Assembly: GCA_902793005.1 (NCBI GenBank) | Contig: CADBBQ010000001.1 | Location: 32,860 to 96,859 of the forward strand | Direction of reading: 5' to 3' | Length of the DNA stretch: 64,000 nt | Origin: an uncultured Pseudomonadota bacterium | GTDB taxonomy: Bacteria > Pseudomonadota > Alphaproteobacteria > Rs-D84 | Shown: one piece after another, positions 5,041 to 62,746 of the stretch | How the letters are laid out: every line of letters starts with the position of its first letter | Numbering within the stretch: position 1 is the first letter of the stretch | Notes under the pieces: model-generated | Seen by the model: the letters and a program-made list of their open reading frames with translations, nothing else | Told to the model about the DNA's origin: nothing | Database searches by the model: none | Translations under genes and position numbers: made by a program

Positions 5041-7269
5041 ATGATAAAGAAAATATTATGTGCGATGTTGGGGCTATTATTCACGATATCTGCAAACGCG
5101 GCATGCAATTTATATACAACAACAAATAGTTCTGCCGGATACATTGATGGAAGTGGTGTTGTACAAAACGCGAGCAGTTATTTGGCAACGGATTACATTG
5201 CGGTTAACTCATCAACCGAATATACCGTTTATATCAAACAGAACGCTGCCATTAGCGGTCACGGGGTTCGTATTGCGTTTTATGATACAAACAAACAATT
5301 TATTTCTCCGCGCCTTGGTGGCGATGCCCCAAGTGCCGGTCAATATATATACAATTTAACATCGCCTGCAAATGCTAAATATATCAGAATGTCAACATAC
5401 GACGGTAATAGTGTTGTCGACAGAACAATAGTCCAGGGTCGATATACCGTGGACACAATCCCAACAAATATGTCGCAATGTGCGACGTGTGACGGGACGA
5501 TTGTGAATTATGTTTCTGCAACTGGAACCGTGTCGCAATCTGGAACTCCAACACCAGACAATCCGATTTATCCAACTTTCTATACCCAGGGCAATATGGT
5601 CCTGCGCAAAGTTGGCAATGTCGCAGATTCTTACGATGCGTCAACGGGTAAAATCACTCGTCGCGTCGGTGTTGCTGTGTTGGATGGTACGGAGAGATGG
5701 GGTGCTCACGCCAGTAACGCAGGTTGGTTTCAATTATCAAGTGATATTTTCCCAACAGATGTTAATACAGATGCATTAAGTACACACTATAGGCAATACA
5801 CACATAATCCATCAAGTATGGCCAATCAAGACATTTTATTTGGACGTCCAGACAGTAGCACAGGAAGAGTTGTTATACGTGATGCTATAAACTTTCCTGA
5901 TGTAGGTCTTGCGGATGATTTTAAATCCTGGCTAGCGCAACAATATGCTGCGGGAACGCCCGTGACGGTTTACTATCCGTTGAAAACGGAAACGACCGAG
6001 GATTGGCCGGCGTCTTACTGTGAAACGCCGATTAAAATCGCTACAACCAAATACAACGAAACTGCATTCAGTCCGCTGAATACGGCGTTGGCGAATGCGA
6101 TTAGTGTGGTGGATTCGGTGGTGTCAAACACGATAACCCAGGCGGCGAGCATCGCGACTTTGCAGGCACAAAAGCAAACGCGGCCGGCGAATGACACTTG
6201 TCCGGCGTACAAACAATGTTTATTGGTTGAGGATGAAAACGGTGCCCCGCACTGGTACGAAATCACCGACCCGTTCCGGGATTTCGTCCGCCCAATTATC
6301 GCGAACAATGTCAACGCGGCATCGTCGACATCCACCAATGGTTATACACAATTGGAATACATCGAATCAACCGGAACACAGTATATTGATACGGGGGTAC
6401 AAGCAACGGGTGATCTTGATATTAAAACAAGATTTAAAATAATATCATACGGCCCCCTATTTGGTACACGAGATGTTGCTACAGGAGCATCGAATAAATC
6501 GGTTTGGGTGGCAGCTTTGGACGGAAGAACCATTTGGTTATACAACAATAAAACTACACATAACCATTTGGAAAAATTAAATTTAGATCAATGGTATGAT
6601 GCAGATATAAACAAAGGCGTGTTATCTTTTAATGGCAATGAAGTTGCGTCGTATGAAACAGAAAATTTTACTGGTTCTGATATATTTCTATTTAATACAA
6701 ATGAGGCCAATGGCACTCTTGCAAGTGGGGCTTCTGTACAAATATCATATTTCAAAATTTATGATGCATCTGGCACCCTCGTTCGCAACTTTGTTCCAGT
6801 TGTTAATAATACAACCGGGAAAATTGGTATGTATGACACTGTCGGTGGGCGGTTCTATGGCAATGCGGCGACGTCGGGTGATGATTTCACCGCGGGTCCG
6901 ATTGTTGAAAACGATGCGGATGTTCCGGGTATGAGTTGGACCGCAACATGGGCGGCGGATGCATCCACGGGTGTTTCAGCCGGCACGGTGTACGGCATCG
7001 CCCGGTGTAATACCCACCCCTCAACGGCAGGTAGCATCATTACGGACACCGCCAGTACCGCATTTAACACACTGGGAAGTATTTGTCACTGTAAAATGAC
7101 ATCAATAGATTTCGAAGGCAGCATATCGGACACAAACACCGCAAAATGGGTGCATGTTGACCATGCAAACGGCGGAACAAAGGTATGTCTACAACAATGC
7201 AGCACATGGTGTCGCGGTTTTACAACAATGACCGAACGCAACAAACCGGTATTATCATCCGTATTGTAA
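5041..7269 (+). CDS. Secreted or lipoprotein paralog A (742 aa) of a two-member family; function unknown
   Basis: N-terminal signal peptide MIKKILCAMLGLLFTISANAAC. A central block (IKIATTKYNETAFSPLNTALANAISVVDSVVSNTITQAASIATLQAQKQTRP...CLLVEDENGAPHWYEI, YTQLEYIESTGTQYIDTG) is nearly identical to 37394-38899, while the N- and C-terminal parts diverge. C-terminal motifs are shared as well (GKIGMYDTVGGRFYGN vs GVVGMYDTDNGVFYEN). Confidence 0.7.
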   Translation: MIKKILCAMLGLLFTISANAACNLYTTTNSSAGYIDGSGVVQNASSYLATDYIAVNSSTEYTVYIKQNAAISGHGVRIAFYDTNKQFISPRLGGDAPSAGQYIYNLTSPANAKYIRMSTYDGNSVVDRTIVQGRYTVDTIPTNMSQCATCDGTIVNYVSATGTVSQSGTPTPDNPIYPTFYTQGNMVLRKVGNVADSYDASTGKITRRVGVAVLDGTERWGAHASNAGWFQLSSDIFPTDVNTDALSTHYRQYTHNPSSMANQDILFGRPDSSTGRVVIRDAINFPDVGLADDFKSWLAQQYAAGTPVTVYYPLKTETTEDWPASYCETPIKIATTKYNETAFSPLNTALANAISVVDSVVSNTITQAASIATLQAQKQTRPANDTCPAYKQCLLVEDENGAPHWYEITDPFRDFVRPIIANNVNAASSTSTNGYTQLEYIESTGTQYIDTGVQATGDLDIKTRFKIISYGPLFGTRDVATGASNKSVWVAALDGRTIWLYNNKTTHNHLEKLNLDQWYDADINKGVLSFNGNEVASYETENFTGSDIFLFNTNEANGTLASGASVQISYFKIYDASGTLVRNFVPVVNNTTGKIGMYDTVGGRFYGNAATSGDDFTAGPIVENDADVPGMSWTATWAADASTGVSAGTVYGIARCNTHPSTAGSIITDTASTAFNTLGSICHCKMTSIDFEGSISDTNTAKWVHVDHANGGTKVCLQQCSTWCRGFTTMTERNKPVLSSVL

Positions 7270-7889: not shown

Positions 7890-9458
7890 ATGGTTGAGTA
7901 TCTGAATAATAATTCTGGATTTGCGGCGTGGAATGCGGCACAAAATCGCGGTGCACCGCGTTCGCGTTTTTCGAATTTTTTATGGTGGACATTTTTGTTT
8001 TTGGTTGCGTGGTGGATTGTTGGATTGTTTATGTCACCTGCGCAAAACGAAAATAAAAACGCGCCGGCGGCGGATGCGTCAATTTTGGTGGATGTGTCAA
8101 ATGTCCCGGTGTATGAAATTTCATCTGACACGATTGCGGCAAATGTTCGTGGCCTGCGCGTGTCAAATATAGATTTAAAAGATTTTGCAAAATCGGGCGA
8201 TGACAATACGCCGGTACGAATGCTGGGCGATGATGGATTTGTTGAAATTGGCCTGACGTCAAACGGCACGACCGCGCCAAATGCCACGACAAAATGGCAA
8301 AAATCTGGGGATAAAATGGTTTGGCGCAATGGCGACGGTGTGGAATTTTCTCGCACAATTACGGTTGATGGATATTTAATTCGCGTATCAGACACGGTTA
8401 AAAATAATACGAAAAACGGAATTTCTGTGGCGCCATACGCACGCGTGTTGCACAAGGGCGATGCATCGTCGTCGGCCGGCGTTTATACCGGTGCCGTTGC
8501 ATATGTAAACCAAGATGTTGAAAATAACGCGTGGCGTGATTTGGATAAAAAATCATACGCATACACAACGACAAATGGATTCGTCGGATTTGCCGAGCAA
8601 TACTGGGAAACAATTGTGCAAACCGATGCGCCCGATCAAACAATGCGTATGAAAAAGCAGGGCGATTTATACGAGGCCGCAACCGTTGCCGCGCCGGTAA
8701 ATATTGCGGCGGGAAAGACACAGACAATCACAACAAATGTTTTTGCCGGCCCGCGCGATGCAAATGTGTTGCGCACGGTTGACGCGACAATTAACGGTAT
8801 TGGCGAAACCATAGATTATGGTTGGTTTTGGTTCTTGGCACGGCCGATGTTGTGGTCAATAAATATGATTCATAAATTTGTGATGAATTATGGTTTGGCG
8901 ATTATAATCTTTACGATTTTAATTCGTATTTTGATGTGGCCATTGACGCGTAAATCATATACTTCGATGATTGCAATGCAGAAAATGCAGCCTGAATTGC
9001 AACGCGTGCAAAAATTATATGCTAATGACAAACAACGTATGCAAATGGAAATGATGCGTGTGTATCAAACGCACAAAACATCACCTATGTCGGGATGTTT
9101 GCCGATGTTGATTCAGATTCCAATTTTCTTTGCATTGTATAAAGCGTTATTGATTTCGGTGCAAATGCGTAATGCGAACTTTTTATGGATACACGATTTG
9201 GCGACGATGGATCCGTATTTTATATTGCCGATTTTAATGGGCGCAACAATGTGGTTGCAACAATATCTGCAACAAAATAAAACAGACACGAAAAACAAAA
9301 ATGATATAACGGCTCAAACCGCCCAGGTTATGAAATGGATGCCGATATTGTTTGCAATAATGTTTGCGTGGATGCCATCCGGCCTGGTGTTGTATTGGAC
9401 TGTATCGAATATATTTGGTATCGGCCAGATGATGTGGTTAAAACACAAATCAAAATAA
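7890..9458 (+). CDS. yidC: Membrane protein insertase YidC
   Basis: 522 aa: an N-terminal transmembrane helix, a large periplasmic domain, and the conserved C-terminal 60-kDa-IMP core (YGLAIIIFTILIRILMWPLT...MQKMQPELQRVQKLY...MSGCLP). Confidence 0.93.
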   Translation: MVEYLNNNSGFAAWNAAQNRGAPRSRFSNFLWWTFLFLVAWWIVGLFMSPAQNENKNAPAADASILVDVSNVPVYEISSDTIAANVRGLRVSNIDLKDFAKSGDDNTPVRMLGDDGFVEIGLTSNGTTAPNATTKWQKSGDKMVWRNGDGVEFSRTITVDGYLIRVSDTVKNNTKNGISVAPYARVLHKGDASSSAGVYTGAVAYVNQDVENNAWRDLDKKSYAYTTTNGFVGFAEQYWETIVQTDAPDQTMRMKKQGDLYEAATVAAPVNIAAGKTQTITTNVFAGPRDANVLRTVDATINGIGETIDYGWFWFLARPMLWSINMIHKFVMNYGLAIIIFTILIRILMWPLTRKSYTSMIAMQKMQPELQRVQKLYANDKQRMQMEMMRVYQTHKTSPMSGCLPMLIQIPIFFALYKALLISVQMRNANFLWIHDLATMDPYFILPILMGATMWLQQYLQQNKTDTKNKNDITAQTAQVMKWMPILFAIMFAWMPSGLVLYWTVSNIFGIGQMMWLKHKSK

Positions 9459-36165: not shown

Positions 36166-36192
36166 AAAAACCGGCATATGCCGGTTTTTTTA
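36166..36192 (+). terminator. Rho-independent terminator after plsX
   Basis: aaaaaaccggcatatgccggttttttt. Confidence 0.55.
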
Positions 36193-37393
36193 GTGTTCAG
36201 AGTTCAAAGTACAAAGCACAAAGTACAATTATGGCAGGATAATTCATTCTCGGACATTCTCCTTCTTTATGAAAGAAGGAGTACCCGAGCAAGCATCGGC
36301 GCGCGAGGGGGAGGTAGTTGTGCACGGCGACAAAGTGAAACGGCGTCGCCATAAAAAAAATTAAAAATCACAACTGCCCCGTCTGACTCGTTGACACTCG
36401 TCATCCACCCCTTCTTTTCCCGTCCCCGCACAGCGGGGCCGCGGTTGAAAAGACGGGGAATATCCAATAATAAATAATTATGCCACAACTGAACTTTGTA
36501 CTCTGTACTCTGAAAACTGCACAACACCCGTTGTGCAAAAAAATATTGCACACGCAATAAAATTTTTTCTATAATACCTTTGTGAATCCGAAACAAGGGA
36601 GTTGGATTCCGGTGGCTTTAGCAGGCCTAAAAACTCCGGTGCAAAGTTTGCATCGTGACTCTCCCAATCTGAAAAACCGATTCGATAATCGGGATGATTG
36701 TGTTTGTTGCATCCATATTTTGCACCGACATTTTTATCACGGTGCCGGAGAAAATTTTTAAATCCCCCTGATGAAAATGTAAATTTTTCCCAGACTGAAA
36801 CCCCCATTATAACATTTTATGTTTGTCGGGGTGCCGCGTACAGCAATGTATGTGGGGTCATTGAGTTTTTGATTTGCTAACACCCCGGCCGCATTCCCGT
36901 TTTTGGATTTGGCGGTGTTTTTTATTTTTTCGCGACTGCGAAAAAATAACAGAGTTCAGAGTGCAAAGTTCAGAGTTCAGTTGATGAATTATTGAATTTG
37001 ACTGTGAACCCAGCCCCGGACATTCCCCGTCGCCAATTTTTACCGAGGTAAAACCGAGGATTAAAAATTGAGCGCCGCGCCGTAGCATTGCGCGTTTTGG
37101 GGGAACGAACCTTGTTTTGTCGGCGAAGGCGGGCAAACCCTCGCGTCAGCACAAAAAGAAGGGGTGGCACGAAACCGTCAGGTTGAGTGACGGGGTAGTT
37201 GTGAAAAAATTACCGCACGGTGGCGTTTTGTTTTGGGAAAATTAAAGGCTCCGAATTCAATTCCCTCGACACAACTGCGTTGTGTCTGCGGGGCACTCCT
37301 CGCTCACGACCAGTTGTGTTTAAACAAAACCAGGCTTTTTGTCCCGAAACAAATCCACCGCACGAACAAAAAGAAAAGAACGGGAGAAAAACT
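36181..37393. repeat. Copy B of the conserved non-coding leader/repeat region (see 4201-5040), longer and with extra internal repeat units
   Basis: Shares the cttctttatgaaagaagg hairpin, acggggtagttgtg units (three, one inverted), the TTGCAC...TATAAT promoter, the conserved block ggtgccgcgtacagcaatgtatgtggggtcattg, and gaacgggagaaaaactATG. Confidence 0.7.
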
Positions 37394-44046: not shown

Positions 44047-44193
44047 AAAAACCGACCATCTGGTCGGTTTTTTCAAAGTTCAATTTTCAAAGTGCAGTCA
44101 ATGCTTCGAACAGGATTTTAATTGTTTTATAATTCATCATTTGAACTCTGTACTTTGAACTTTGTACTCTGGTAAAAAATCCTGATGGATTTT

Positions 44194-53229: not shown

Positions 53230-54153
53230 ATGAAAGTTGCAATTATTGGTTTGGGTTCTGTTGGTTCGGCGATTGCCACCGCAATTAAAAATACTGGCCT
53301 GGTGCACGAAATGGTTTTGTTTGACCGTGACGGCGTGCGGAGTGCCGCTGCGGCGGCGGATTTGGGACACGCATCCGCATTTTCGTTCGATGTAAAAATC
53401 ACGGCGGCAAATTCATATCGTGAAATCCGTGGTTCTGAAATCGTGGTTATTGCGGCCGGCGCAAATCAAAAGCCGGGACAAACCCGCACGGATTTATTGG
53501 ATGCAAACGCAAATGTTATTCGTGATATTATCCCACGTGTTATGGCAAATACAGACCCCAAAACGGTTAAAATCATTATGGTCACCAACCCGTTGGATGT
53601 TATGGTTATGTTGGCACGCGATTTGTCAGGCCTGCCGTCTGCGCGTGTTATTGGCACGGGTACGATGTTGGATTCGGCGCGTCTGCGCACGATATTGGCG
53701 CGGCAATTGTCGGTTTCGCCAATGTCAATCAATGCGTATGTGTTGGGTGAACACGGTGATGCAAGCGTGGTAAATTGGGAATCGATCAGTATTGGTGCAA
53801 TACCATTAAATGATTTTTGTAAATCAACAAAAATATCTTTGCCACAAACGACCCGTCGCACGATAGAACACCGTGTTCATAACGCGGCGTATGAAATAAT
53901 CCAGGGTCGCGGTGCGACGTGGGACGGAATTGCGGCGGCGGTAAATGATTTGCTGCGCTGTATCATAAATGACGAAAAAAGAATTTTAACCGTGTCAATA
54001 TGCGCGCCAAAAACAAATATTGCTATGTCGCGTCCATCGATTGTTGGGCGTTCGGGGGTAATAACGGTGTTGTCGCCACGTATGTCGCCATCGGAAAGCA
54101 AAGGTTTACAAGCGTGCACTCGTATTATCAAGAAAAATTACAATAATATTTAA
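53230..54153 (+). CDS. ldh: L-lactate dehydrogenase (LDH/MDH superfamily, Gln at the substrate-specificity position)
   Basis: NAD-binding region KVAIIGLGSVGSAIATAI. Substrate loop AAGANQKPGQTR (Gln rather than the Arg of LDH-like MDHs). LGEHGDASV catalytic His region. Confidence 0.72.
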   Translation: MKVAIIGLGSVGSAIATAIKNTGLVHEMVLFDRDGVRSAAAAADLGHASAFSFDVKITAANSYREIRGSEIVVIAAGANQKPGQTRTDLLDANANVIRDIIPRVMANTDPKTVKIIMVTNPLDVMVMLARDLSGLPSARVIGTGTMLDSARLRTILARQLSVSPMSINAYVLGEHGDASVVNWESISIGAIPLNDFCKSTKISLPQTTRRTIEHRVHNAAYEIIQGRGATWDGIAAAVNDLLRCIINDEKRILTVSICAPKTNIAMSRPSIVGRSGVITVLSPRMSPSESKGLQACTRIIKKNYNNI

Positions 54154-54228
54154 TGGATTTTAATCGTATTTATTCGTATTGATTTTGCGTTTATAGTTGT
54201 TGTGATAAACATTTGGGACACGATAATT

Positions 54229-54525
54229 ATGGACAAAATTCAATACGAACTTTTACCAGACGGTTGCGGTTTTTGTGCCAAGAAAGATGGGGAAAATATT
54301 GGCGAAATCACATTTGTAAAAATTGGTCTGGATAAATTGATGATTGAACATACCACTGTTGAATCGGAATATCAAAATTTTCCCATTGTTTTTAATCTGG
54401 TAAATTGTGTTGTGAATTTGGCGCGGCACCAGCATCGCAAGGTTTTAAATCGTTGCAACACGGCGCAAAATATTTTTATTGGCCATCCAGAATTTGACGA
54501 TGTGTTGCTAATGAATTCTCATTAA
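54229..54525 (+). CDS. Small GNAT-like (Acetyltransf_CG-type) protein; hypothetical
   Basis: About 98 aa whose pattern (ITFVKIGLDKLMIEHTTV...VNLARHQHRKVLNRC) resembles the compact GNAT_CG family. Weak. Confidence 0.4.
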   Translation: MDKIQYELLPDGCGFCAKKDGENIGEITFVKIGLDKLMIEHTTVESEYQNFPIVFNLVNCVVNLARHQHRKVLNRCNTAQNIFIGHPEFDDVLLMNSH

Positions 54526-54610
54526 AAATAAATATAAATTTTCATAAAATTATCTTGCGCGATTTGGTTAGTATTTTCTATAATCAAAGCAACAATGAAA
54601 AGGAGAAATT

Positions 54611-55123
54611 ATGAAAATCAAGATTTTATACGCGTTGATGGGTTTGTTTTTTGTGTGTGGTGCGCACGCGGCTGATATGACGATTTATTATTCACCAACG
54701 TGTCCGCATTGTCATCACGCGCGTGATTATGCATCGAATAATTTTATTTACGAATATCCAACAATGAATATCACTATGATTGATGTGACGGTGCCTGAAC
54801 ATCGTGCGTTATTCATTGATGTTATAAAAACGTGTGATTTTTCATCAGGTGGCGTGCCGGTAATAAAAATTGGTGATAAATGTTTCCAAGGATTTGCGGA
54901 ATCTATGGCGGATGATATGCGTGCGGCAATTGAAATTGATATGGATGACGCGGCAAAAAAATCTGCGGCGGATGTAAAGCGTGCAATCAGTGAAAACGGT
55001 GATGCATATCGTGATGAACATCCAACACCGGTTGCGACAATTACAGAATACACCGCGACGGGTGACGAAATGCGGAAAAAAAAACGACCGCATCGGACAG
55101 TAAATGGGCATCTTGGGTATTGA
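54611..55123 (+). CDS. Periplasmic thioredoxin-fold thiol:disulfide oxidoreductase (CPHC active site)
   Basis: Signal peptide MKIKILYALMGLFFVCGAHAA, then YYSPTCPHCHHA (CxxC). Confidence 0.55.
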   Translation: MKIKILYALMGLFFVCGAHAADMTIYYSPTCPHCHHARDYASNNFIYEYPTMNITMIDVTVPEHRALFIDVIKTCDFSSGGVPVIKIGDKCFQGFAESMADDMRAAIEIDMDDAAKKSAADVKRAISENGDAYRDEHPTPVATITEYTATGDEMRKKKRPHRTVNGHLGY

Positions 55124-55206
55124 TAATATTGGCGTTGGTTGTTTTGGGATTTTGTGTATCGGTTGCAAAATCAAAAAAATAAAACTGCATTCCAAGGATT
55201 TAAATT

Positions 55207-55998
55207 ATGTTTGATTTAACAAGTCTGGATTATGTTTATATTATTGTGTTGTTGGCATCCACGGTTTGGGCGACAATTCGTGGTGGTGTGTACGAAACAA
55301 TTGCGACACTGTCTTGGGTGGTTGCGGCGGTTGCGGCGCGTTTTACGTCCCCGTGGTTGGATGGTGTATTCCAAGATTGGTTTAAATTACCTGATTCGAC
55401 GGTTGTGACATTGGTTGCGTCGTATTTTGTGGTGTTTTTTGTGATATTATTGGTGGTTGGTTTTGTGAATCAAAAACTGCGCGATAAAATCCAAGAATCA
55501 ATGATGAATGTGACCGATCATACATTGGGCGTTATATTTGGTATTATTCGTGGAATTGTGGTTATGGGCATTGTGTATTGGGTTGCATTGTGGTATTATT
55601 CGGATGTACCGCATATGCCGCGTTGGATGGAAAATGCACGCACTCGTCCAATTATGCAATTAACCGCGGTAAAATTGGATGATTGGTTTGTTCCGGGTGA
55701 TGTAAACAAGTTATTGGCCCGTGATGTCGAGGGAACAAAACAAGCGGACGAGATTTATAAAAATTTAATAAATCCTGCGGTATCAACAATGAATGATATA
55801 AAAAACGGAACAAGTCGCCAGCCCAAGGTTGATGTGAATGACAAGACTGTTTCAAAACCGGAATCGACGGTTCGTCCGGATGCGGATACGGGATATAAAT
55901 CATCTGAGCGGACGGCGTTGGAAAAACAGTTGTTGCAAATAGAAACATCGGCGCGTGCGGCGGATGCAAAAAATAAAGAACAAAAAATCACAGAATAA
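55207..55998 (+). CDS. cvpA: CvpA-family membrane protein (colicin V production protein homolog)
   Basis: N-terminal CvpA pattern (LDYVYIIVLLASTVWATIRGGVYETIATLSWVVAAV) with four transmembrane helices and a hydrophilic C-terminus. Confidence 0.7.
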   Translation: MFDLTSLDYVYIIVLLASTVWATIRGGVYETIATLSWVVAAVAARFTSPWLDGVFQDWFKLPDSTVVTLVASYFVVFFVILLVVGFVNQKLRDKIQESMMNVTDHTLGVIFGIIRGIVVMGIVYWVALWYYSDVPHMPRWMENARTRPIMQLTAVKLDDWFVPGDVNKLLARDVEGTKQADEIYKNLINPAVSTMNDIKNGTSRQPKVDVNDKTVSKPESTVRPDADTGYKSSERTALEKQLLQIETSARAADAKNKEQKITE

Positions 55999-56083
55999 AT
56001 AAAAACATCAACCCCGATTGCATCGGGGTTTTTACATAGGTTTTGGTTCTTGGTGCATATTGATTTGCCTTGTGTAAAACGAT

Positions 56084-56557
56084 ATGTTATTAAAACCAAA
56101 AATTTATATCACGGTATTATTCATATACGAAGTTATTGCGGTAATGATGTTGCATTGTCAAACGATATGTACGCCAATGTTGGGCGAAACCGCGTGCGCT
56201 GATTGGTTTCGGTATTTTGCATTTTGTGTAGTTGTGCCCGGAGTCGTTGGTTTGATATGGATGTGGGTTAAAACGATTATTTGTTCATATCGTAATCGGT
56301 TTTTTCGTCGTGCGCGTGGTGCGGTCATAGATGCGTTTGATGGATTACGTGATAAATTAGCCGACAGAATTTCTCGCCAAGATATTGAAAAATATATAAC
56401 AATCGCATCGTTATATGGAATTCGTTATTATATGTCGCGCAACCCACGCTTTCGCGAGTTGTTACACGAAATTTTACCAGAAAGCGCCGAATGGGATTTG
56501 GACGAAGAACCAACCAAGGCGCGCACAAAAAATAAAAAGCGTCCGCGCCGAAAATAA
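56084..56557 (+). CDS. Hypothetical membrane protein (157 aa)
   Basis: Two or three predicted transmembrane helices and a basic C-terminus. ORF only. Confidence 0.3.
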   Translation: MLLKPKIYITVLFIYEVIAVMMLHCQTICTPMLGETACADWFRYFAFCVVVPGVVGLIWMWVKTIICSYRNRFFRRARGAVIDAFDGLRDKLADRISRQDIEKYITIASLYGIRYYMSRNPRFRELLHEILPESAEWDLDEEPTKARTKNKKRPRRK

Positions 56558-56606
56558 TTTTTGTTTTGCCAAGGACAAACATCGCCGCAATTGCGGCGAT
56601 GTTTTT

Positions 56607-58925
56607 TTATCGATTTTGTTGCAAAGAAAATTTTTCTTGTAACAATTTTTGCATTTCTTCAACATTTCGCAACTGGCGTTGTGTATCATCAGGATTATTC
56701 ATAACATCTTTGGCCAATCGTTTTATTTGAGCATCTAAATTACTGATGAAATTTTCTATTTGTACTTCCAAAGATTTAACATCAACCATTGTTGTGTGCG
56801 TTTGTGATACAGGACGCATAATCCGTGGACGTTTTTCGCGTGATTGATTTGCGGCGATGTTGTTTTTTTGTTTGTCCGCAATTTTTTTAGCATATGTTTC
56901 TAATAATTCAGACACATTTAAATAATCCGACCGTTCAACAAAATCTTTGGTAATCGTCACGCCATCCATATTTTGACCTTTGGCGGCATTTGGAATTGCC
57001 ACAGAATTATACATTTTTATTGCCTGTGCATTGTCGCCATGGGCGGCAAAGAAAGCGGTTGCAACCATAATTTTATCATCTGGGTTTATTGTCCAAACAA
57101 TTCGTCTGTTGTCGTTGTTTTCAATATGTTGTGATGCCGCGCGCCCAGATTTTATTTCAGTATTAGGAATAATTTGTTTAGTATTATTTTTATCTATATA
57201 TTGTAAAGGCGTATGTGGTGTTTGTGTTGCATAATTCATATTCACTTTGTTTATTCGTTCCAACACAGAATACAACAAATTCAAACTGTCGCCACAGGCA
57301 TTGCAGATACTTTTCCAAATTTGTTTTGGAATATATTTTTCAATTTTAATTGTTTGTTTTTCTTTTTTAACTTTTGCGACTTTTTTCTCTGCCTGGGTTT
57401 TAGGTGTTGATGTGGTTGTGGGCTTTGGTGTTTCACGAACGGCATCAGTGTTGTATATTTGCAACATCACCTGCTTTAACAAATCCAGTGATTCCATATG
57501 CACGCAAGTAATGGATTGACCGTTGTGCGATTTGGTGCCTGACTTAATTTGTTTGTTTGTTTTTATTGCCAGTCTGACTAATTTTTCCATATCTGCATCA
57601 ATGTCTTTGAAACGTGCATCCGCGCGACACAATTCAACAATTTCTTTACGACTAAGCCATTGTTCGGTTTTTGTTGTTGGGTCTGTTGTTTTTACGACCG
57701 CAACAGGCGCGGCAACATTTTGTTGTGCGTGTTTTTGTTCAATTTGATTTAACGCCGCCACTAAAATATCCTGTAAAGATAACGCGTGTTTTGAATCCCA
57801 AATTTCGATATGTGGATTTTTATCTTGGAATTGTCTGAATTCGCGCAACATTTGTAAATCTTTGGCGGTCGCATTCAGCATTGAACGTGATAACAAAATT
57901 TCACGCACAGATTTTGGAAATTTCATATTCAACAATTCTGAAAAATTTTTCACTGTTCTTGAAAAATCGATTTTCGTTGTGCCGTTTGGTATATCGCCTT
58001 TGAATAAATCCAGTTTCGTATTCGAACAGTCTAAACGTCCGCGAATGCTTTTTGGAAAAACGATTTTTTCGCGTGCACCGGAACAAACGAAATTAGAATT
58101 TATATCAATATTAGAAAAATCAAACGGGATTTTATTTTTTGACACATCGATTTGATGCATAATACGGTAATGTTTTGTGCCGTCTAATTTGAAAACGTCT
58201 GTTTGTGTTCCGTCTTCCAATACGATTGGTAATGCCGGTGGTACAGAATTTTTGATTCGCCCCAGGCAGTTATTAAATTGGTTGATTTTATATACCATAC
58301 CTGAATCGTCAAAAATCACAGTTTCAATAATTTTATTGATTTTTGACATTTTTTCAGATTCCGATTTTGTTGCTTCGATATCTTTTATCAGCAAAAACAG
58401 ATATTCGCGGAAAATTGCCTCGGTTCTGCGTTGACTGTCGGTAATTTCATTTGTGCGAATATTGTTTTCCGCCCAAGAATATAAAAAGTTTACATAATCG
58501 CGTTTTTCTGGGGTTTGTTCCAAAGATGTTTTTGGACGTATTATTAATTTTCTGTGTGTATCCCAGAAATCACGTGATTTTTTCAAACTGGATTCTTGTA
58601 TTGTTATCTTTTCTGTGCCAGATAACATATTTTCACAAAAATCTATAAATCCTTTTTCATCGCCCTGTATAGGGTTTGCTGTAAAATCATTGTATGCATT
58701 GGTTTTGACAATGAAATGATAATCTTTGGAAAAGTAATCCGTGGTATACACCGGCGAATTCACAGGGACAATCACAATGGCGTTTGTTTTGTATAATAAC
58801 CACGCCGCCGCACGCGGATTAATACTGTGCGGAAAAATCACGTGCGAAATCCCATCGCTTGAATCAATGTGTGCACCCATAGCCAGTTCAGCATATGCAC
58901 CAGATAACGATTTTTTTTGTGGCAT
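56607..58925 (-). CDS. Large hypothetical protein (772 aa), AT-rich, next to a serine recombinase; possible effector or cargo protein
   Basis: No signal peptide and no familiar catalytic motifs that I can name. A Lys/Thr-rich linker (TPKPTTTSTPKTQAEKKVAKVKKEKQ). The C-terminal part has a RelE/ParE-like pattern (RRIVWTINPDDKIMVATAFFAAHGDN). Low-GC codon usage unlike its neighbours. Confidence 0.45.
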   Translation of the reverse strand: MPQKKSLSGAYAELAMGAHIDSSDGISHVIFPHSINPRAAAWLLYKTNAIVIVPVNSPVYTTDYFSKDYHFIVKTNAYNDFTANPIQGDEKGFIDFCENMLSGTEKITIQESSLKKSRDFWDTHRKLIIRPKTSLEQTPEKRDYVNFLYSWAENNIRTNEITDSQRRTEAIFREYLFLLIKDIEATKSESEKMSKINKIIETVIFDDSGMVYKINQFNNCLGRIKNSVPPALPIVLEDGTQTDVFKLDGTKHYRIMHQIDVSKNKIPFDFSNIDINSNFVCSGAREKIVFPKSIRGRLDCSNTKLDLFKGDIPNGTTKIDFSRTVKNFSELLNMKFPKSVREILLSRSMLNATAKDLQMLREFRQFQDKNPHIEIWDSKHALSLQDILVAALNQIEQKHAQQNVAAPVAVVKTTDPTTKTEQWLSRKEIVELCRADARFKDIDADMEKLVRLAIKTNKQIKSGTKSHNGQSITCVHMESLDLLKQVMLQIYNTDAVRETPKPTTTSTPKTQAEKKVAKVKKEKQTIKIEKYIPKQIWKSICNACGDSLNLLYSVLERINKVNMNYATQTPHTPLQYIDKNNTKQIIPNTEIKSGRAASQHIENNDNRRIVWTINPDDKIMVATAFFAAHGDNAQAIKMYNSVAIPNAAKGQNMDGVTITKDFVERSDYLNVSELLETYAKKIADKQKNNIAANQSREKRPRIMRPVSQTHTTMVDVKSLEVQIENFISNLDAQIKRLAKDVMNNPDDTQRQLRNVEEMQKLLQEKFSLQQNR

Positions 58926-59014
58926 TTTGTCCCCCTGAAAGTGTTATTGATAAATAATATATAATACAAAAATACACTTTTGTCAATATATAATATAAAG
59001 ATACAGTTTTTATT

Positions 59015-59614
59015 TTACCACCCCATCCGATTTATAAATCGGGACAAAGTTGCGTGTTTCACCCCCACGATTTTTGCGATTTTATACCGTGTCATCCCCA
59101 TATCCAGTAATTTTTTTACCTTTTTTGCGTTATCAGACAATTTTAATTTTTTTGACTGCGCGGCAAAAGGACGCCCCAATCGCTTGCCGGACGCGCGTAC
59201 ACTTTCCAGGGACGCTTTTGTTCGTTGTGATATCAGGTTGCGTTCGATTTCCGCGGACAGACCAAATGCGAAAGCCATAACCTTGCTTTGAATATCGTTC
59301 CCCAATCGGTAATTTTCTTTCAGTGTCCATACTTGGCAATTTTTATTTAAACACGATTCTAAAATCCGCATAACTTCCAACAATGACCGCCCCAGGCGCG
59401 ATATTTCGGCGGCGATTAAAATATCGCCGTTATTCAAACTGTCTAATAATTGTCCTAATTTTCGTTTGCTTAACGCCTTGCGCGAAGAAATTGTTTCCAT
59501 TACCCATTTATCAATTAGAATATGATTTTTTTTTGCAAACTGTTCAATTTCGAACCGCTGGTGTTGCAGCGTTTGTTTTGTTGACGACACACGAATATAT
59601 CCGATAATAGCCAT
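59015..59614 (-). mobile_element. Serine recombinase (resolvase/invertase family)
   Basis: N-terminal catalytic domain with the nucleophile Ser (MAIIGYIRVSSTKQTLQHQR), a conserved RLGRS region, and a C-terminal HTH (TRYKIAKIVGVKHATLSRFI). 199 aa, the typical resolvase/Hin size. Confidence 0.88.
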
Positions 59615-59831
59615 TGTAAAATCCTTTGTTTAATAGAAATTAATCTAATAAACAATTGTGGACAATTTTTACAAACACAAATTAAAAAAATATTGGAGAT
59701 ACCGGAAATTAATTGTTTTTTGCATAAAAAAACGCCCATTGGGCGATTTTATAATTAAATTCGGAGACATAACCACACAATTTCAAAAAAGAAAATGCGG
59801 CCCGCCACCCGAAGCCCCCCAGGGCGAAACG

Positions 59832-59907
59832 TGGTGCCAGTTGTCGGACTTGAACCAACGACCCTCTGATTACAAATCAGATGCTCTACCAGCTGAGCTA
59901 AACTGGC
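59832..59907 (-). tRNA. tRNA-Thr (anticodon TGT)
   Basis: Reverse complement: gccagtttagctcagctggtagagcatctgatttGTaatcagagggtcgttggttcaagtccgacaactggcacca, with anticodon loop ttTGTaa, T-loop GGTTCAAGTCC and encoded CCA. Confidence 0.85.
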
Positions 59908-61930: not shown

Positions 61931-62746
61931 TCATTTATTGAACTTTGAACTTTGCACTTTGAACTTTGATATAAAAATTCCGGCGCCAATCACAAACATT
62001 ACGCCCGATAATAATTGTCCCATTGTTAACCCCCAGGTTGTTAAAAATCCAATCTGGGCGTCCGGTGCACGAAACATTTCGCAAAAAATCCGGGCCACCG
62101 CGTACAGCATTGCCAACACGCCCGACAGCGCACCGGGATGTGATTTTAAATTTGTTTTCTTGTATAACCACCACATTAATATAAATAAAATTACGCCCTC
62201 GGTTGCGGCCTCGTACAGGGGGCTGGGGTGGCGTGGCGTGGTTGTGTCGCCACGGAACACGACTCCCCACGGCATATCGGTTGCGCGACCCATAACCTCC
62301 ATATTTATAAAGTTTGCAATTCGGCCAAAAAACAGGCCAATCGGCGCCAAAACTGCACATAAATCCAATAATTTCCACCCGTTTAATTTATTTTTGTGTG
62401 CAAATATAAAATTCGCAATTACAACCCCAATCAGACCACCGTGAAAACTCATCCCGCCGTGCCATACCATAAATATTTCCAACGGGTGCGCAATAAAAAA
62501 CGGCAAATTATAAAATAACACATACCCCAGGCGTCCGCCCAGTATCACACCCAAAATAATCGCGGTTAAAAAATCATCGCTTTGTTTTTTATCCAACATA
62601 ATTCCAGAATTTTTGTCGCGTATCATACGCAAAAACAACCAAAAGCAGATTAAAAATCCCGCGATATAAGCCAATGCATACCAACGAATATCAATGCCGA
62701 ATATTGACACCGCCACGGGCGAAATTGGATTTATAACAATTGCCAT
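61931..62746 (-). CDS. lgt: Phosphatidylglycerol:prolipoprotein diacylglyceryl transferase
   Basis: IRWYALAYIAGFL..., GGRLGYVLFYN, and the Lgt signature GGMSFHGGLIGV. Start at the internal Met (MAIVINPI) of ORF 61931-62794. Confidence 0.88.
   Translation of the reverse strand: MAIVINPISPVAVSIFGIDIRWYALAYIAGFLICFWLFLRMIRDKNSGIMLDKKQSDDFLTAIILGVILGGRLGYVLFYNLPFFIAHPLEIFMVWHGGMSFHGGLIGVVIANFIFAHKNKLNGWKLLDLCAVLAPIGLFFGRIANFINMEVMGRATDMPWGVVFRGDTTTPRHPSPLYEAATEGVILFILMWWLYKKTNLKSHPGALSGVLAMLYAVARIFCEMFRAPDAQIGFLTTWGLTMGQLLSGVMFVIGAGIFISKFKVQSSKFNK

Follow-up and report, generated by a model that had tools for sequence, protein, structure and literature searches.

A Putative Mpi-Like DNA Invertase and an Ancestral AT-Rich Gene beside an Unoccupied tRNA-Thr Attachment Site in an Uncultured Alphaproteobacterium

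The subject of this analysis is a stretch of 64,000 nucleotides (nt) of contig CADBBQ010000001.1, hereafter the window (mean guanine plus cytosine [GC] content 0.425), and within it a minus-strand group of three genes: a tRNA-Thr, a small serine recombinase, and a large gene rich in adenine and thymine (AT-rich) for a protein of 772 residues. An earlier note on this DNA had proposed that the recombinase and the large gene form a small integrative islet at the tRNA. We consider it probable that the region is instead resident chromosome, comprising a conserved invertase with a decayed switch, an ancestral large gene, and an empty attachment site. The window would be vertically inherited chromosome of a gut alphaproteobacterium related to "Candidatus Enterousia," with no mobile islet, and the 772-residue gene would be old and fast-evolving, with a fixed promoter of its own. 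Evidence from the organism's own genome covers the 64-kb window, which was compared with contigs from related genomes (coded L001–L105); the conspecific set comprised 11 sequences, with 10 contigs carrying an identical recombinase.

For the recombinase, we propose that enzymes of its family flip a segment of ~137 base pairs (bp) between inverted crossover sites and would thereby swap the −35 box of a promoter (TTGAAA for ATAACA in a pair of relatives caught in both states). The swap would control a divergent operon, often one for surface or secreted proteins, which is a classic phase-variation design. In the window this switch appears to have decayed: the recombinase-side junction alone is recognizable, in one orientation, and the divergent operon seems to be gone. 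Since the protein is perfectly conserved despite the decayed switch, we infer that it works in trans, on intact switches at other places in the genome; such action is made plausible by genomes with several copies of the family and by an orphan pair of sites in one relative. The tRNA-Thr would be a free attachment site, at which sister strains hold what look like decayed tyrosine-integrase islets with lipoprotein genes.

Ancestry and Promoter of the Large Gene

The large open reading frame (ORF) occupies positions 56607..58925 on the minus strand, as the earlier note had placed it, and is described by synteny, an AlphaFold model, and a profile search as the gene for a lineage-specific multidomain protein. 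Every relative examined has it in a syntenic position, and all conspecific contigs carry both it and the recombinase gene. In relatives whose large proteins are 64%, 35%, and 32% identical, the neighbors are an ORF of 156–158 residues, cvpA, GNAT, ldh, proS, and two acyltransferase genes. The relatives L001 (64%) and L006 (32%) keep the large gene together with its promoter block and have no recombinase; the order in L006 and L007 is tRNA-Thr, terminator, large gene. With a GC content of 0.360 (0.314 at third codon positions), the large gene does depart from the window mean, as had been claimed for both genes, but the recombinase gene (0.412) lies near that mean and near cvpA (0.422). Low GC content is a family trait of the large gene, because its orthologues are equally AT-rich (0.345–0.377, vs. 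0.41–0.46 in their own cvpA genes). Between conspecific sequences, 8–23 nonsynonymous and 17–33 synonymous codon differences were counted in the large gene. Comparison with the relatives shows it to be an ancestral, fast-evolving gene and not cargo.

This bears directly on the proposed islet, in which the recombinase, acting as an integrase, and the 772-residue gene, as its cargo, would have entered at the tRNA-Thr as a unit of 3.2 kb. The pair does adjoin the tRNA, the large gene is low in GC content (0.360 vs. 0.425), and in four relatives (L026, L071, L076, and L090) a second copy of a tRNA 3′ end stands 100–190 bp downstream of a family recombinase. Such an entry is contradicted by species without a recombinase, in which the large gene and its promoter are found in the same place, by the AT-richness common to all orthologues, by the occurrence of both genes in all conspecific contigs, and by the lack of an attachment repeat: no copy of the tRNA 3′ half of at least 9 nt exists in positions 54000–59831, where the longest matches are 7–8 nt, in agreement with the earlier note, which had seen no obvious one at 56560–56640. 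The enzyme, moreover, is of the small invertase type and not of a known integrase type. We regard the islet as having hardly any likelihood. The note had itself named two findings that would speak against mobility; the same gene at the same position with matching composition in orthologous genomes is indeed seen, and a recombinase without catalytic residues is not, these residues being intact. Its suggestion to look for presence or absence in relatives does lead to a polymorphic segment, which is another one, located between the tRNA and the recombinase.

The spacer between the two protein-coding genes (58926..59014, minus strand; 89 bp) is AT-rich and promoter-like, as noted before, and holds the promoter and ribosome-binding site of the large gene. 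A block of the form TTATTGACAAA...ATTTTTGTAT...CAGG.G.A.AAAATG recurs in six species, among them the recombinase-free L001 and L006. Its form in the window, read on the minus strand, consists of TTGACA (58981–58986), 17 nt, and TATATA (58958–58963), with the ribosome-binding site CAGGGGGA at 58930–58937; a strict promoter scanner omits it because its −10 box ends in A. All four species with both genes share the junction between the stop codon of the recombinase gene and this promoter. Judged by this conservation, the block is a fixed promoter owned by the large gene. A direct repeat of 26 nt (58956–58981 and 58985–59010; 88% identical, 29-bp spacing) overlaps the promoter. At the equivalent place, L004 and L056 have another repeat of 15 nt (AAAAGCAnAnTTTTG, 41-bp spacing). 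The direct repeats at the large-gene promoter may be operator sites.

As an alternative to the islet, the earlier note had considered an invertase that switches the large gene by flipping the promoter in this spacer, or another local segment. The invertase type of the enzyme fits such a switch, as do the promoter-like boxes and the direct repeat of the AT-rich spacer. A terminator scan detected no terminator between the recombinase gene and the large gene, so that read-through from one into the other is possible. Yet repeat scans, which the note had suggested, gave no inverted repeats flanking 58926–59014, the promoter block has one fixed orientation in six species, two of them without recombinase, the 11 conspecific sequences are collinear, and the segment that is proven to invert in this family lies beyond the opposite end of the recombinase gene. 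The note had thus read the enzyme class correctly and its target wrongly, and we find switching of the large gene through the spacer very unlikely. An inverted repeat inside the large gene (58571–58594/58821–58844; 24 nt, 79%) was also considered and put down to chance, being unlike the sites of the family and lying in a region where conspecific contigs are collinear.

In two further relatives, L013 (7622–11758, minus strand) and L027 (6625–10764, minus strand), the recombinase is followed by a convergent gene for a protein of 1,378 residues, which replaces the 772-residue family and has weak matches to AAA/STAND nucleoside triphosphatases; the slot on the cvpA side thus varies in its large gene by lineage.

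The 772-residue protein matched no family in Pfam, NCBIfam, or PHROG, which agrees with its description as an orphan. Judged by eye, its sequence also fits the earlier note's view that it has no signal peptide. It is not a strict orphan: a first search found ten homologues, of which the one with a source name is from an alphaproteobacterial metagenome-assembled genome (MAG), and an exhaustive profile search gave 125 clusters (50% identity), of which 61 reach E ≤ 1e-30. Many of these clusters represent proteins of 500–700 residues that share the C-terminal two-thirds, and a Pfam search with ten distant members revealed no informative domain in common. The AlphaFold model (predicted local distance difference test score 74.5) suggests an N-terminal alpha/beta region, a beta-solenoid resembling leucine-rich repeats at residues ~230–380, and a winged-helix-like domain at ~420–498; it further suggests an alpha/beta domain at ~529–650, followed by a C-terminal coiled coil. 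A RelE/ParE-like pattern had been proposed for the C-terminus; what resemblance there is falls at ~529–650 instead and is weak. The best Foldseek match of this region is the RelE/ParE-type toxin HP0892 (probability 0.77, E = 0.15), no match reaching E ≤ 0.001; other top matches are YoeB/ParE (6n90) and RelE1 (9g12). A profile search of PDB gave nothing, and one of six family members matched Gp49 (E = 0.055). The predicted order of a strand, two helices, and then four or more strands is like that of the RelE/ParE fold, whereas, unlike RelE/ParE toxins, the domain is embedded in a protein of 772 residues and has no antitoxin partner.

The Recombinase and the Inversion Switch of Its Family

The recombinase gene is intact and lies at 59015..59614 on the minus strand, where a resolvase/invertase-type ORF had been noted. 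Its product of 199 residues has a Pfam Resolvase domain (E = 2.5e-32, residues 3–144) and a C-terminal helix-turn-helix (HTH) region at residues 156–196, which scores below cutoff in both HTH_7 (21.5 bits, cutoff 23.8) and HTH_38 (21.5 bits, cutoff 27) and aligns with the HTH of Gin. The NCBIfam model NF009949 ("master DNA invertase Mpi family") matches over 195 of its 203 positions at 268.7 bits, narrowly under the curated cutoff of 272 bits; the PHROG match is to "DNA invertase" (1.9e-42), and the nearest solved structure is the Gin invertase (4m6f, E = 5e-10). The YIRVSS motif with the nucleophile and the arginines of RLGRS align with Gin, Sin, and gamma-delta resolvase, leaving the catalytic residues intact. 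By class, this analysis shows the protein to be a predicted Mpi-like serine DNA invertase.

Conservation of the protein is extreme. The 11 conspecific sequences differ at 25 nucleotides of the recombinase gene and at no amino acid of its product, and of the 120 best homologues listed nearly every one is 199 residues long and 79–100% identical; by contrast, the large protein drops to 32% identity across related genomes. The substitution pattern indicates that the recombinase is under strong purifying selection. In a scan of reference genomes, members of the family came from "Candidatus Enterousia" and related MAGs of gut and rumen Alphaproteobacteria, with two or three copies in several genomes; the 64-kb window contains no second copy.

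The function of the family is best seen in natural inversions. An all-against-all comparison of 103 loci revealed that L011 and L012 are collinear save for an inversion of 143 bp directly upstream of the recombinase start, which is 100% identical when reversed, and that the otherwise collinear pair L057 and L058 differs by an inversion of 146 bp at the same place. The inversion junctions fall in two conserved motifs (far side, CAAACCAAC-GATTGTG; near side, ATCG-TTCTATTAAAT), and the crossover sites of the family have the form CAAACC-AA-CGATTGTG. A survey of 81 related loci found both outer half-sites in 57, at a distance of 124–142 bp (mode 137). Among 54 well-formed switches, 37 are oriented one way and 12 the other way (5 are ambiguous).

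A TTGAyy hexamer is located at one end of the segment; when that end abuts the far flank, the hexamer comes to stand 16–18 nt from a fixed TAnnnT hexamer. An independent scanner likewise reports an operon-facing promoter, TTGAAA-17-TATATT in L012 and ATAACA-17-TATATT in L011, and for 32 of 55 switches a strict pattern test found the operon-side promoter to be complete in one orientation and incomplete in the other. A divergent ORF starts at most 150 nt from the far site in 52 of the 54 loci. In 26 of the 54 loci, as judged by a crude N-terminal test, this ORF has a lipoprotein or signal-peptide start; other divergent genes are autotransporter-like, or are dead recombinase paralogs leading glycosyltransferase operons. 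In other genomes the recombinase gene is divergent from glycosyltransferase clusters or from Slam-type lipoprotein operons. We infer, in part from these sequence patterns, that flipping of the segment exchanges the −35 box of a promoter reading into the divergent operon. A toggle between the recombinase's own promoter and the operon promoter was also considered and rejected: the spacing on the recombinase side is 9 nt and not 17, and that side is complete one way in only 14 of 55 switches.

In the window, what is left of this arrangement is the recombinase-proximal junction at 59640..59657 (minus strand), which reads CCACAATTGTT-TATTAGAT, vs. CCACAATCGTTCTATTAAAT in the family, and thus has three changes relative to the state B ("operon-on") form. 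It was identified by a survey of family sites and by alignment with the closest relatives, L104, L105, L028, and L009, whose recombinases are 87–80% identical. In the same alignment no far site is recognizable in the window, and the divergent operon is missing; in the place of both are a terminator and the tRNA-Thr, the latter oriented like the recombinase. The terminator-like hairpin, CGCCCAATGGGCG followed by a T-run (59733..59745, minus strand), stands between the tRNA-Thr and the region upstream of the recombinase and is kept in every conspecific contig. An inverted-repeat scan and comparison by eye with the family sites pointed to a doubtful distal arm, GCAAAAAACAATTAATTT at 59711..59728 (minus strand), which matches CAAACCAACGATT of the family at 10 of 13 positions and forms with 59640–59657 a weak inverted repeat (18 nt, 78% complementary, 53 nt apart). 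This assignment is uncertain and is not relied on here, because MAFFT places the distal site of the family on the terminator region and not at 59711–59728. All 11 of 11 conspecific sequences are collinear and in the same orientation.

It should be noted that several points weigh against a decayed local switch served by an active invertase. The effect of the −35 exchange on expression is deduced from agreement with the promoter consensus, in which the two states differ little (9 vs. 10 of 12 matches), and the window enzyme is assigned to the invertases from its sequence, with the shortfall on the Mpi model described above. At the position equivalent to D67 of gamma-delta resolvase it has a serine (ISRLGRS), which is probably a family trait and not a defect, because three aligned family members share it. 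The weak repeat of 59640–59657 and 59711–59728 could be a working mini-switch. Assemblies give the majority orientation, so that 11 collinear contigs are compatible with flipping at low frequency; a metagenome scan for the flipped junction had 0 matches and was powerless, the native-junction control having matched 1 contig only. Finally, the site motifs are neither enriched nor found as a pair in the 64-kb window, which contains no target switch for the enzyme.

Two sequence candidates in the window were examined and set aside. The 12-mer CAAACCAACGAC at 56243–56254 (minus strand) is one mismatch from the outer half-site, but is probably a coding coincidence: it lies inside a conserved ORF of 157 residues and is exact in conspecific strains, and a one-mismatch form occurs in L001, which has no recombinase. 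The motif ARACGTWCGT, a putative core of the Mpi inverted repeat, is not enriched in the window (10 occurrences vs. 19.8 expected).

Two side observations concern sites and enzymes of the family in relatives. First, L092 has a perfect inverted repeat of 30 nt (8621–8650 and 8709–8738) with 58 nt between the arms, which are themselves palindromic; it lies 2 kb from the recombinase gene, beside a tRNA cluster, as an "orphan" candidate switch. These are the best-preserved sites seen, with two half-sites of 13 bp around an AA core, which is the layout of hix and gix sites. Second, catalytically dead recombinase paralogs occur in L004 (6553–7149, minus strand) and L009 (6234–6842, minus strand), with similar genes in L028, L030, and L090; those of L004 and L009 are 24–25% identical, have LIFLGH in place of YIRVSS, and keep the HTH. 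Such paralogs are the first gene of glycosyltransferase operons facing the inversion switch, and their sequences suggest that they may be invertase-derived DNA-binding regulators.

The tRNA-Thr Site and the Origin of the Recombinase Module

The tRNA-Thr (anticodon UGU; 59832..59907, minus strand) was confirmed with ARAGORN and the Rfam tRNA model (72.6 bits). In the sister strains L017, L018, and L024 the arrangement is that of the window, with the U32 gene, the tRNA-Thr, and the recombinase directly adjacent and the site empty. Five other contigs carry an insert between tRNA and recombinase, of 2,253 bp in L015, 3,156 bp in L016 and L020, and 3,670 bp in L019 and L021. Blastn and exact-match mapping of these five contigs showed that the last 45 nt of the tRNA-Thr (59832..59876, minus strand; read 59876–59832) occur as a perfect direct repeat, twice in each cassette contig and once in the window. 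The tRNA-Thr of the window is in this way shown, by sequence comparison, to be an unoccupied attachment site. The earlier note had thus pointed to an integration site that is used in sister strains, for a different segment and one absent here; the conserved flank outside the 45-nt repeats includes the recombinase and the large gene.

The inserts are of three types, which have unrelated cargo between two common ends, ~640 bp on the left (99% identical) and ~200 bp on the right (94–96%). This cargo consists of cysteine-rich predicted lipoproteins and, in L015, also a protein with an Mrr-type nuclease domain. No integrase is encoded by the cassettes; their left end has ~35 codons matching the N-termini of proteins named "site-specific integrase" (best 56%, E = 3e-4). 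The simplest account of these sequences is that the cassettes are a family of decayed tyrosine-integrase islets. At their conserved left end, the cassettes of all five contigs also have a promoter-like TTGACT-17-TAAAAT, and the 221 nt behind it close with a terminator (7895–8115 in L015). In L015 the folding energy of this stretch is −89.5 kcal/mol, vs. −59.3 ± 4.4 kcal/mol for shuffled sequences (z = −6.9), and it has no Rfam match; folding predictions suggest that the islets may carry here a structured RNA not yet described.

A more adventurous account is that the neighboring recombinase itself moves the integrase-less cassettes into and out of the tRNA-Thr site, in the manner of an integron. 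Its gene is only 217 bp from the attachment site, three cassettes without an intact integrase occupy that site in strains whose recombinase is 100% identical, and the enzyme is strongly conserved though its own switch has decayed. At their tRNA-proximal end, the cassettes nevertheless encode a truncated tyrosine "site-specific integrase" N-terminus, and they have repeated motifs of the GGTCCAATT type at both ends that look, by eye, like integrase arm sites; a decayed classical island is the simpler account of both. The crossover sites of the family are also unlike the 45-nt tRNA sequence, and integration of DNA is not known for small serine recombinases of the invertase type. We consider insertion and excision by the recombinase quite improbable, and the same low expectation applies to the broader idea of a domesticated serine recombinase that captures and releases surface-protein cassettes at the tRNA-Thr, that is, an integron-like platform built on an invertase-type enzyme.

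A separate question is how the recombinase came to stand beside the tRNA. Between the terminator of the tRNA-Thr and the promoter of the large gene, the recombinase and the switch remnant behave as an indel of ~0.85 kb with exactly these borders, which is present in the window, L028 (59%), and L004 and L056 (35%) and absent from L001 (64%) and L006 (32%). This module alone could be an old insertion that was delivered by a now decayed tRNA-integrating island. L006 has the tRNA-Thr, the terminator, and the promoter of the large gene with nothing between them, the family is multicopy and elsewhere lies inside islands bounded by tRNA repeats, and L076 has a remnant resembling a tyrosine integrase beside the tRNA (DUF6538, E = 3e-4, below the Pfam cutoff). 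On the other hand, no attachment scar remains, and an ancestral module that was lost twice is no less parsimonious, the same junction being found in four species (35–100% identity of the large protein); the identity of this junction in all four carriers favors ancestral presence. We judge the old insertion unlikely, though it deserves some weight; as it concerns the origin of the module, it is compatible with the resident invertase that we propose for its present function.

The 3′-terminal 12–19 nt of four different tRNAs recur near family recombinases in L026 (6729–6740), L071 (6735–6750), L076 (6783–6801), and L090 (6693–6709), which places the module of recombinase, switch, and operon there at the far end of a tRNA-integrated island. 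A general enrichment of tRNAs near the recombinase was considered and rejected, with 0.48 tRNAs per 10 kb in related loci vs. ~0.47 in the window (3 in 64 kb).

Neighboring Features and Comparison with Known Systems

Downstream of the large gene, a perfect palindrome, AAACATCGCCGCAATTGCGGCGATGTTT (56577..56604, inverted repeat with 19-nt arms, 100% complementary), separates it from the convergent hypothetical ORF of 157 residues (56084..56557, plus strand) and is probably a bidirectional terminator. This ORF, after which cvpA follows, stands beside the large gene in every related locus. Elsewhere in the window are intergenic arrays of heptamers (AGTTCAG/AGTGCAA/AGTACAA), in both orientations and often just past terminators, at 36193–36228, 36489–36512, 36950–36980, 44073–44097, 44142–44172, and 61940–61970. 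They were considered as targets of the invertase and dropped, as they have no resemblance to the family sites. Two of them form inverted arrays (36489–36512/36950–36973; 24 nt, 92% complementary) that bracket ~430 bp inside 36166–37219, a stretch of ~1 kb with no convincing ORF between two plus-strand genes, in which Rfam found no family at gathering score.

For the window itself, the outcome is mainly corrective: a textbook-like combination of tRNA, recombinase, and AT-rich orphan is probably not an islet, and the truly variable segment at the tRNA-Thr is absent from this strain. The more useful by-product is a clade of uncultured gut and rumen Alphaproteobacteria with multiple copies of Mpi-like invertases and switches of ~137 bp, of which two natural inversions were caught. 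With this, cell-surface phase variation of the Bacteroides kind would extend to an unrelated gut lineage with reduced genomes, and the site motifs CAAACCAAC … GTTCTATTAAAT are usable for mapping invertons in metagenomes.

The cassettes of the sister strains are like tRNA-targeting tyrosine-integrase islands in their position at the 3′ end of the tRNA-Thr, their 45-nt repeat, their fixed ends with variable cargo, and their truncated integrase N-terminus. Unlike the islet proposed for the window, they are absent from it, and they exclude the recombinase and the 772-residue gene.

The closest parallel of the recombinase is Mpi of Bacteroides fragilis, which according to a passage of PMC4747536 inverts 13 promoter regions, 7 of them before capsular polysaccharide loci (Coyne et al. 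2003); the passage also describes a single mpi, head-to-head with tsr19 (PMC4747536). One contig of our comparison, L091 (CAVGNU010000004.1), is labeled B. fragilis and has a 70%-identical recombinase with a full switch at 5820–5975 (sites CAAACGAACGTTTGTG and AATCGTTCGTTTAAAA); its layout differs from the mpi–tsr19 arrangement, and upstream of the gene is a strong Shine–Dalgarno sequence. Either a binning error or a transfer between gut phyla may explain this contig.

Like Mpi, the window enzyme is a small serine recombinase of ~200 residues that scores 268.7 bits on the NCBIfam Mpi model (if below its cutoff of 272), and its family in "Candidatus Enterousia" appears to flip short promoter segments before glycosyltransferase, lipoprotein, Slam-type, and other operons. 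Unlike Mpi, it belongs to an alphaproteobacterial host and not to Bacteroides, its family is multicopy, each copy normally having its own switch directly upstream, and in the window there is no intact local switch. With Hin, Gin, Cin, and Pin, the recombinase shares fold and catalytic motifs, but identity is ~25%. The invertible segment of its family is also far shorter than in those systems (~137 bp) and gene-free, and it would exchange only a −35 hexamer, not a whole promoter or alternative gene ends.

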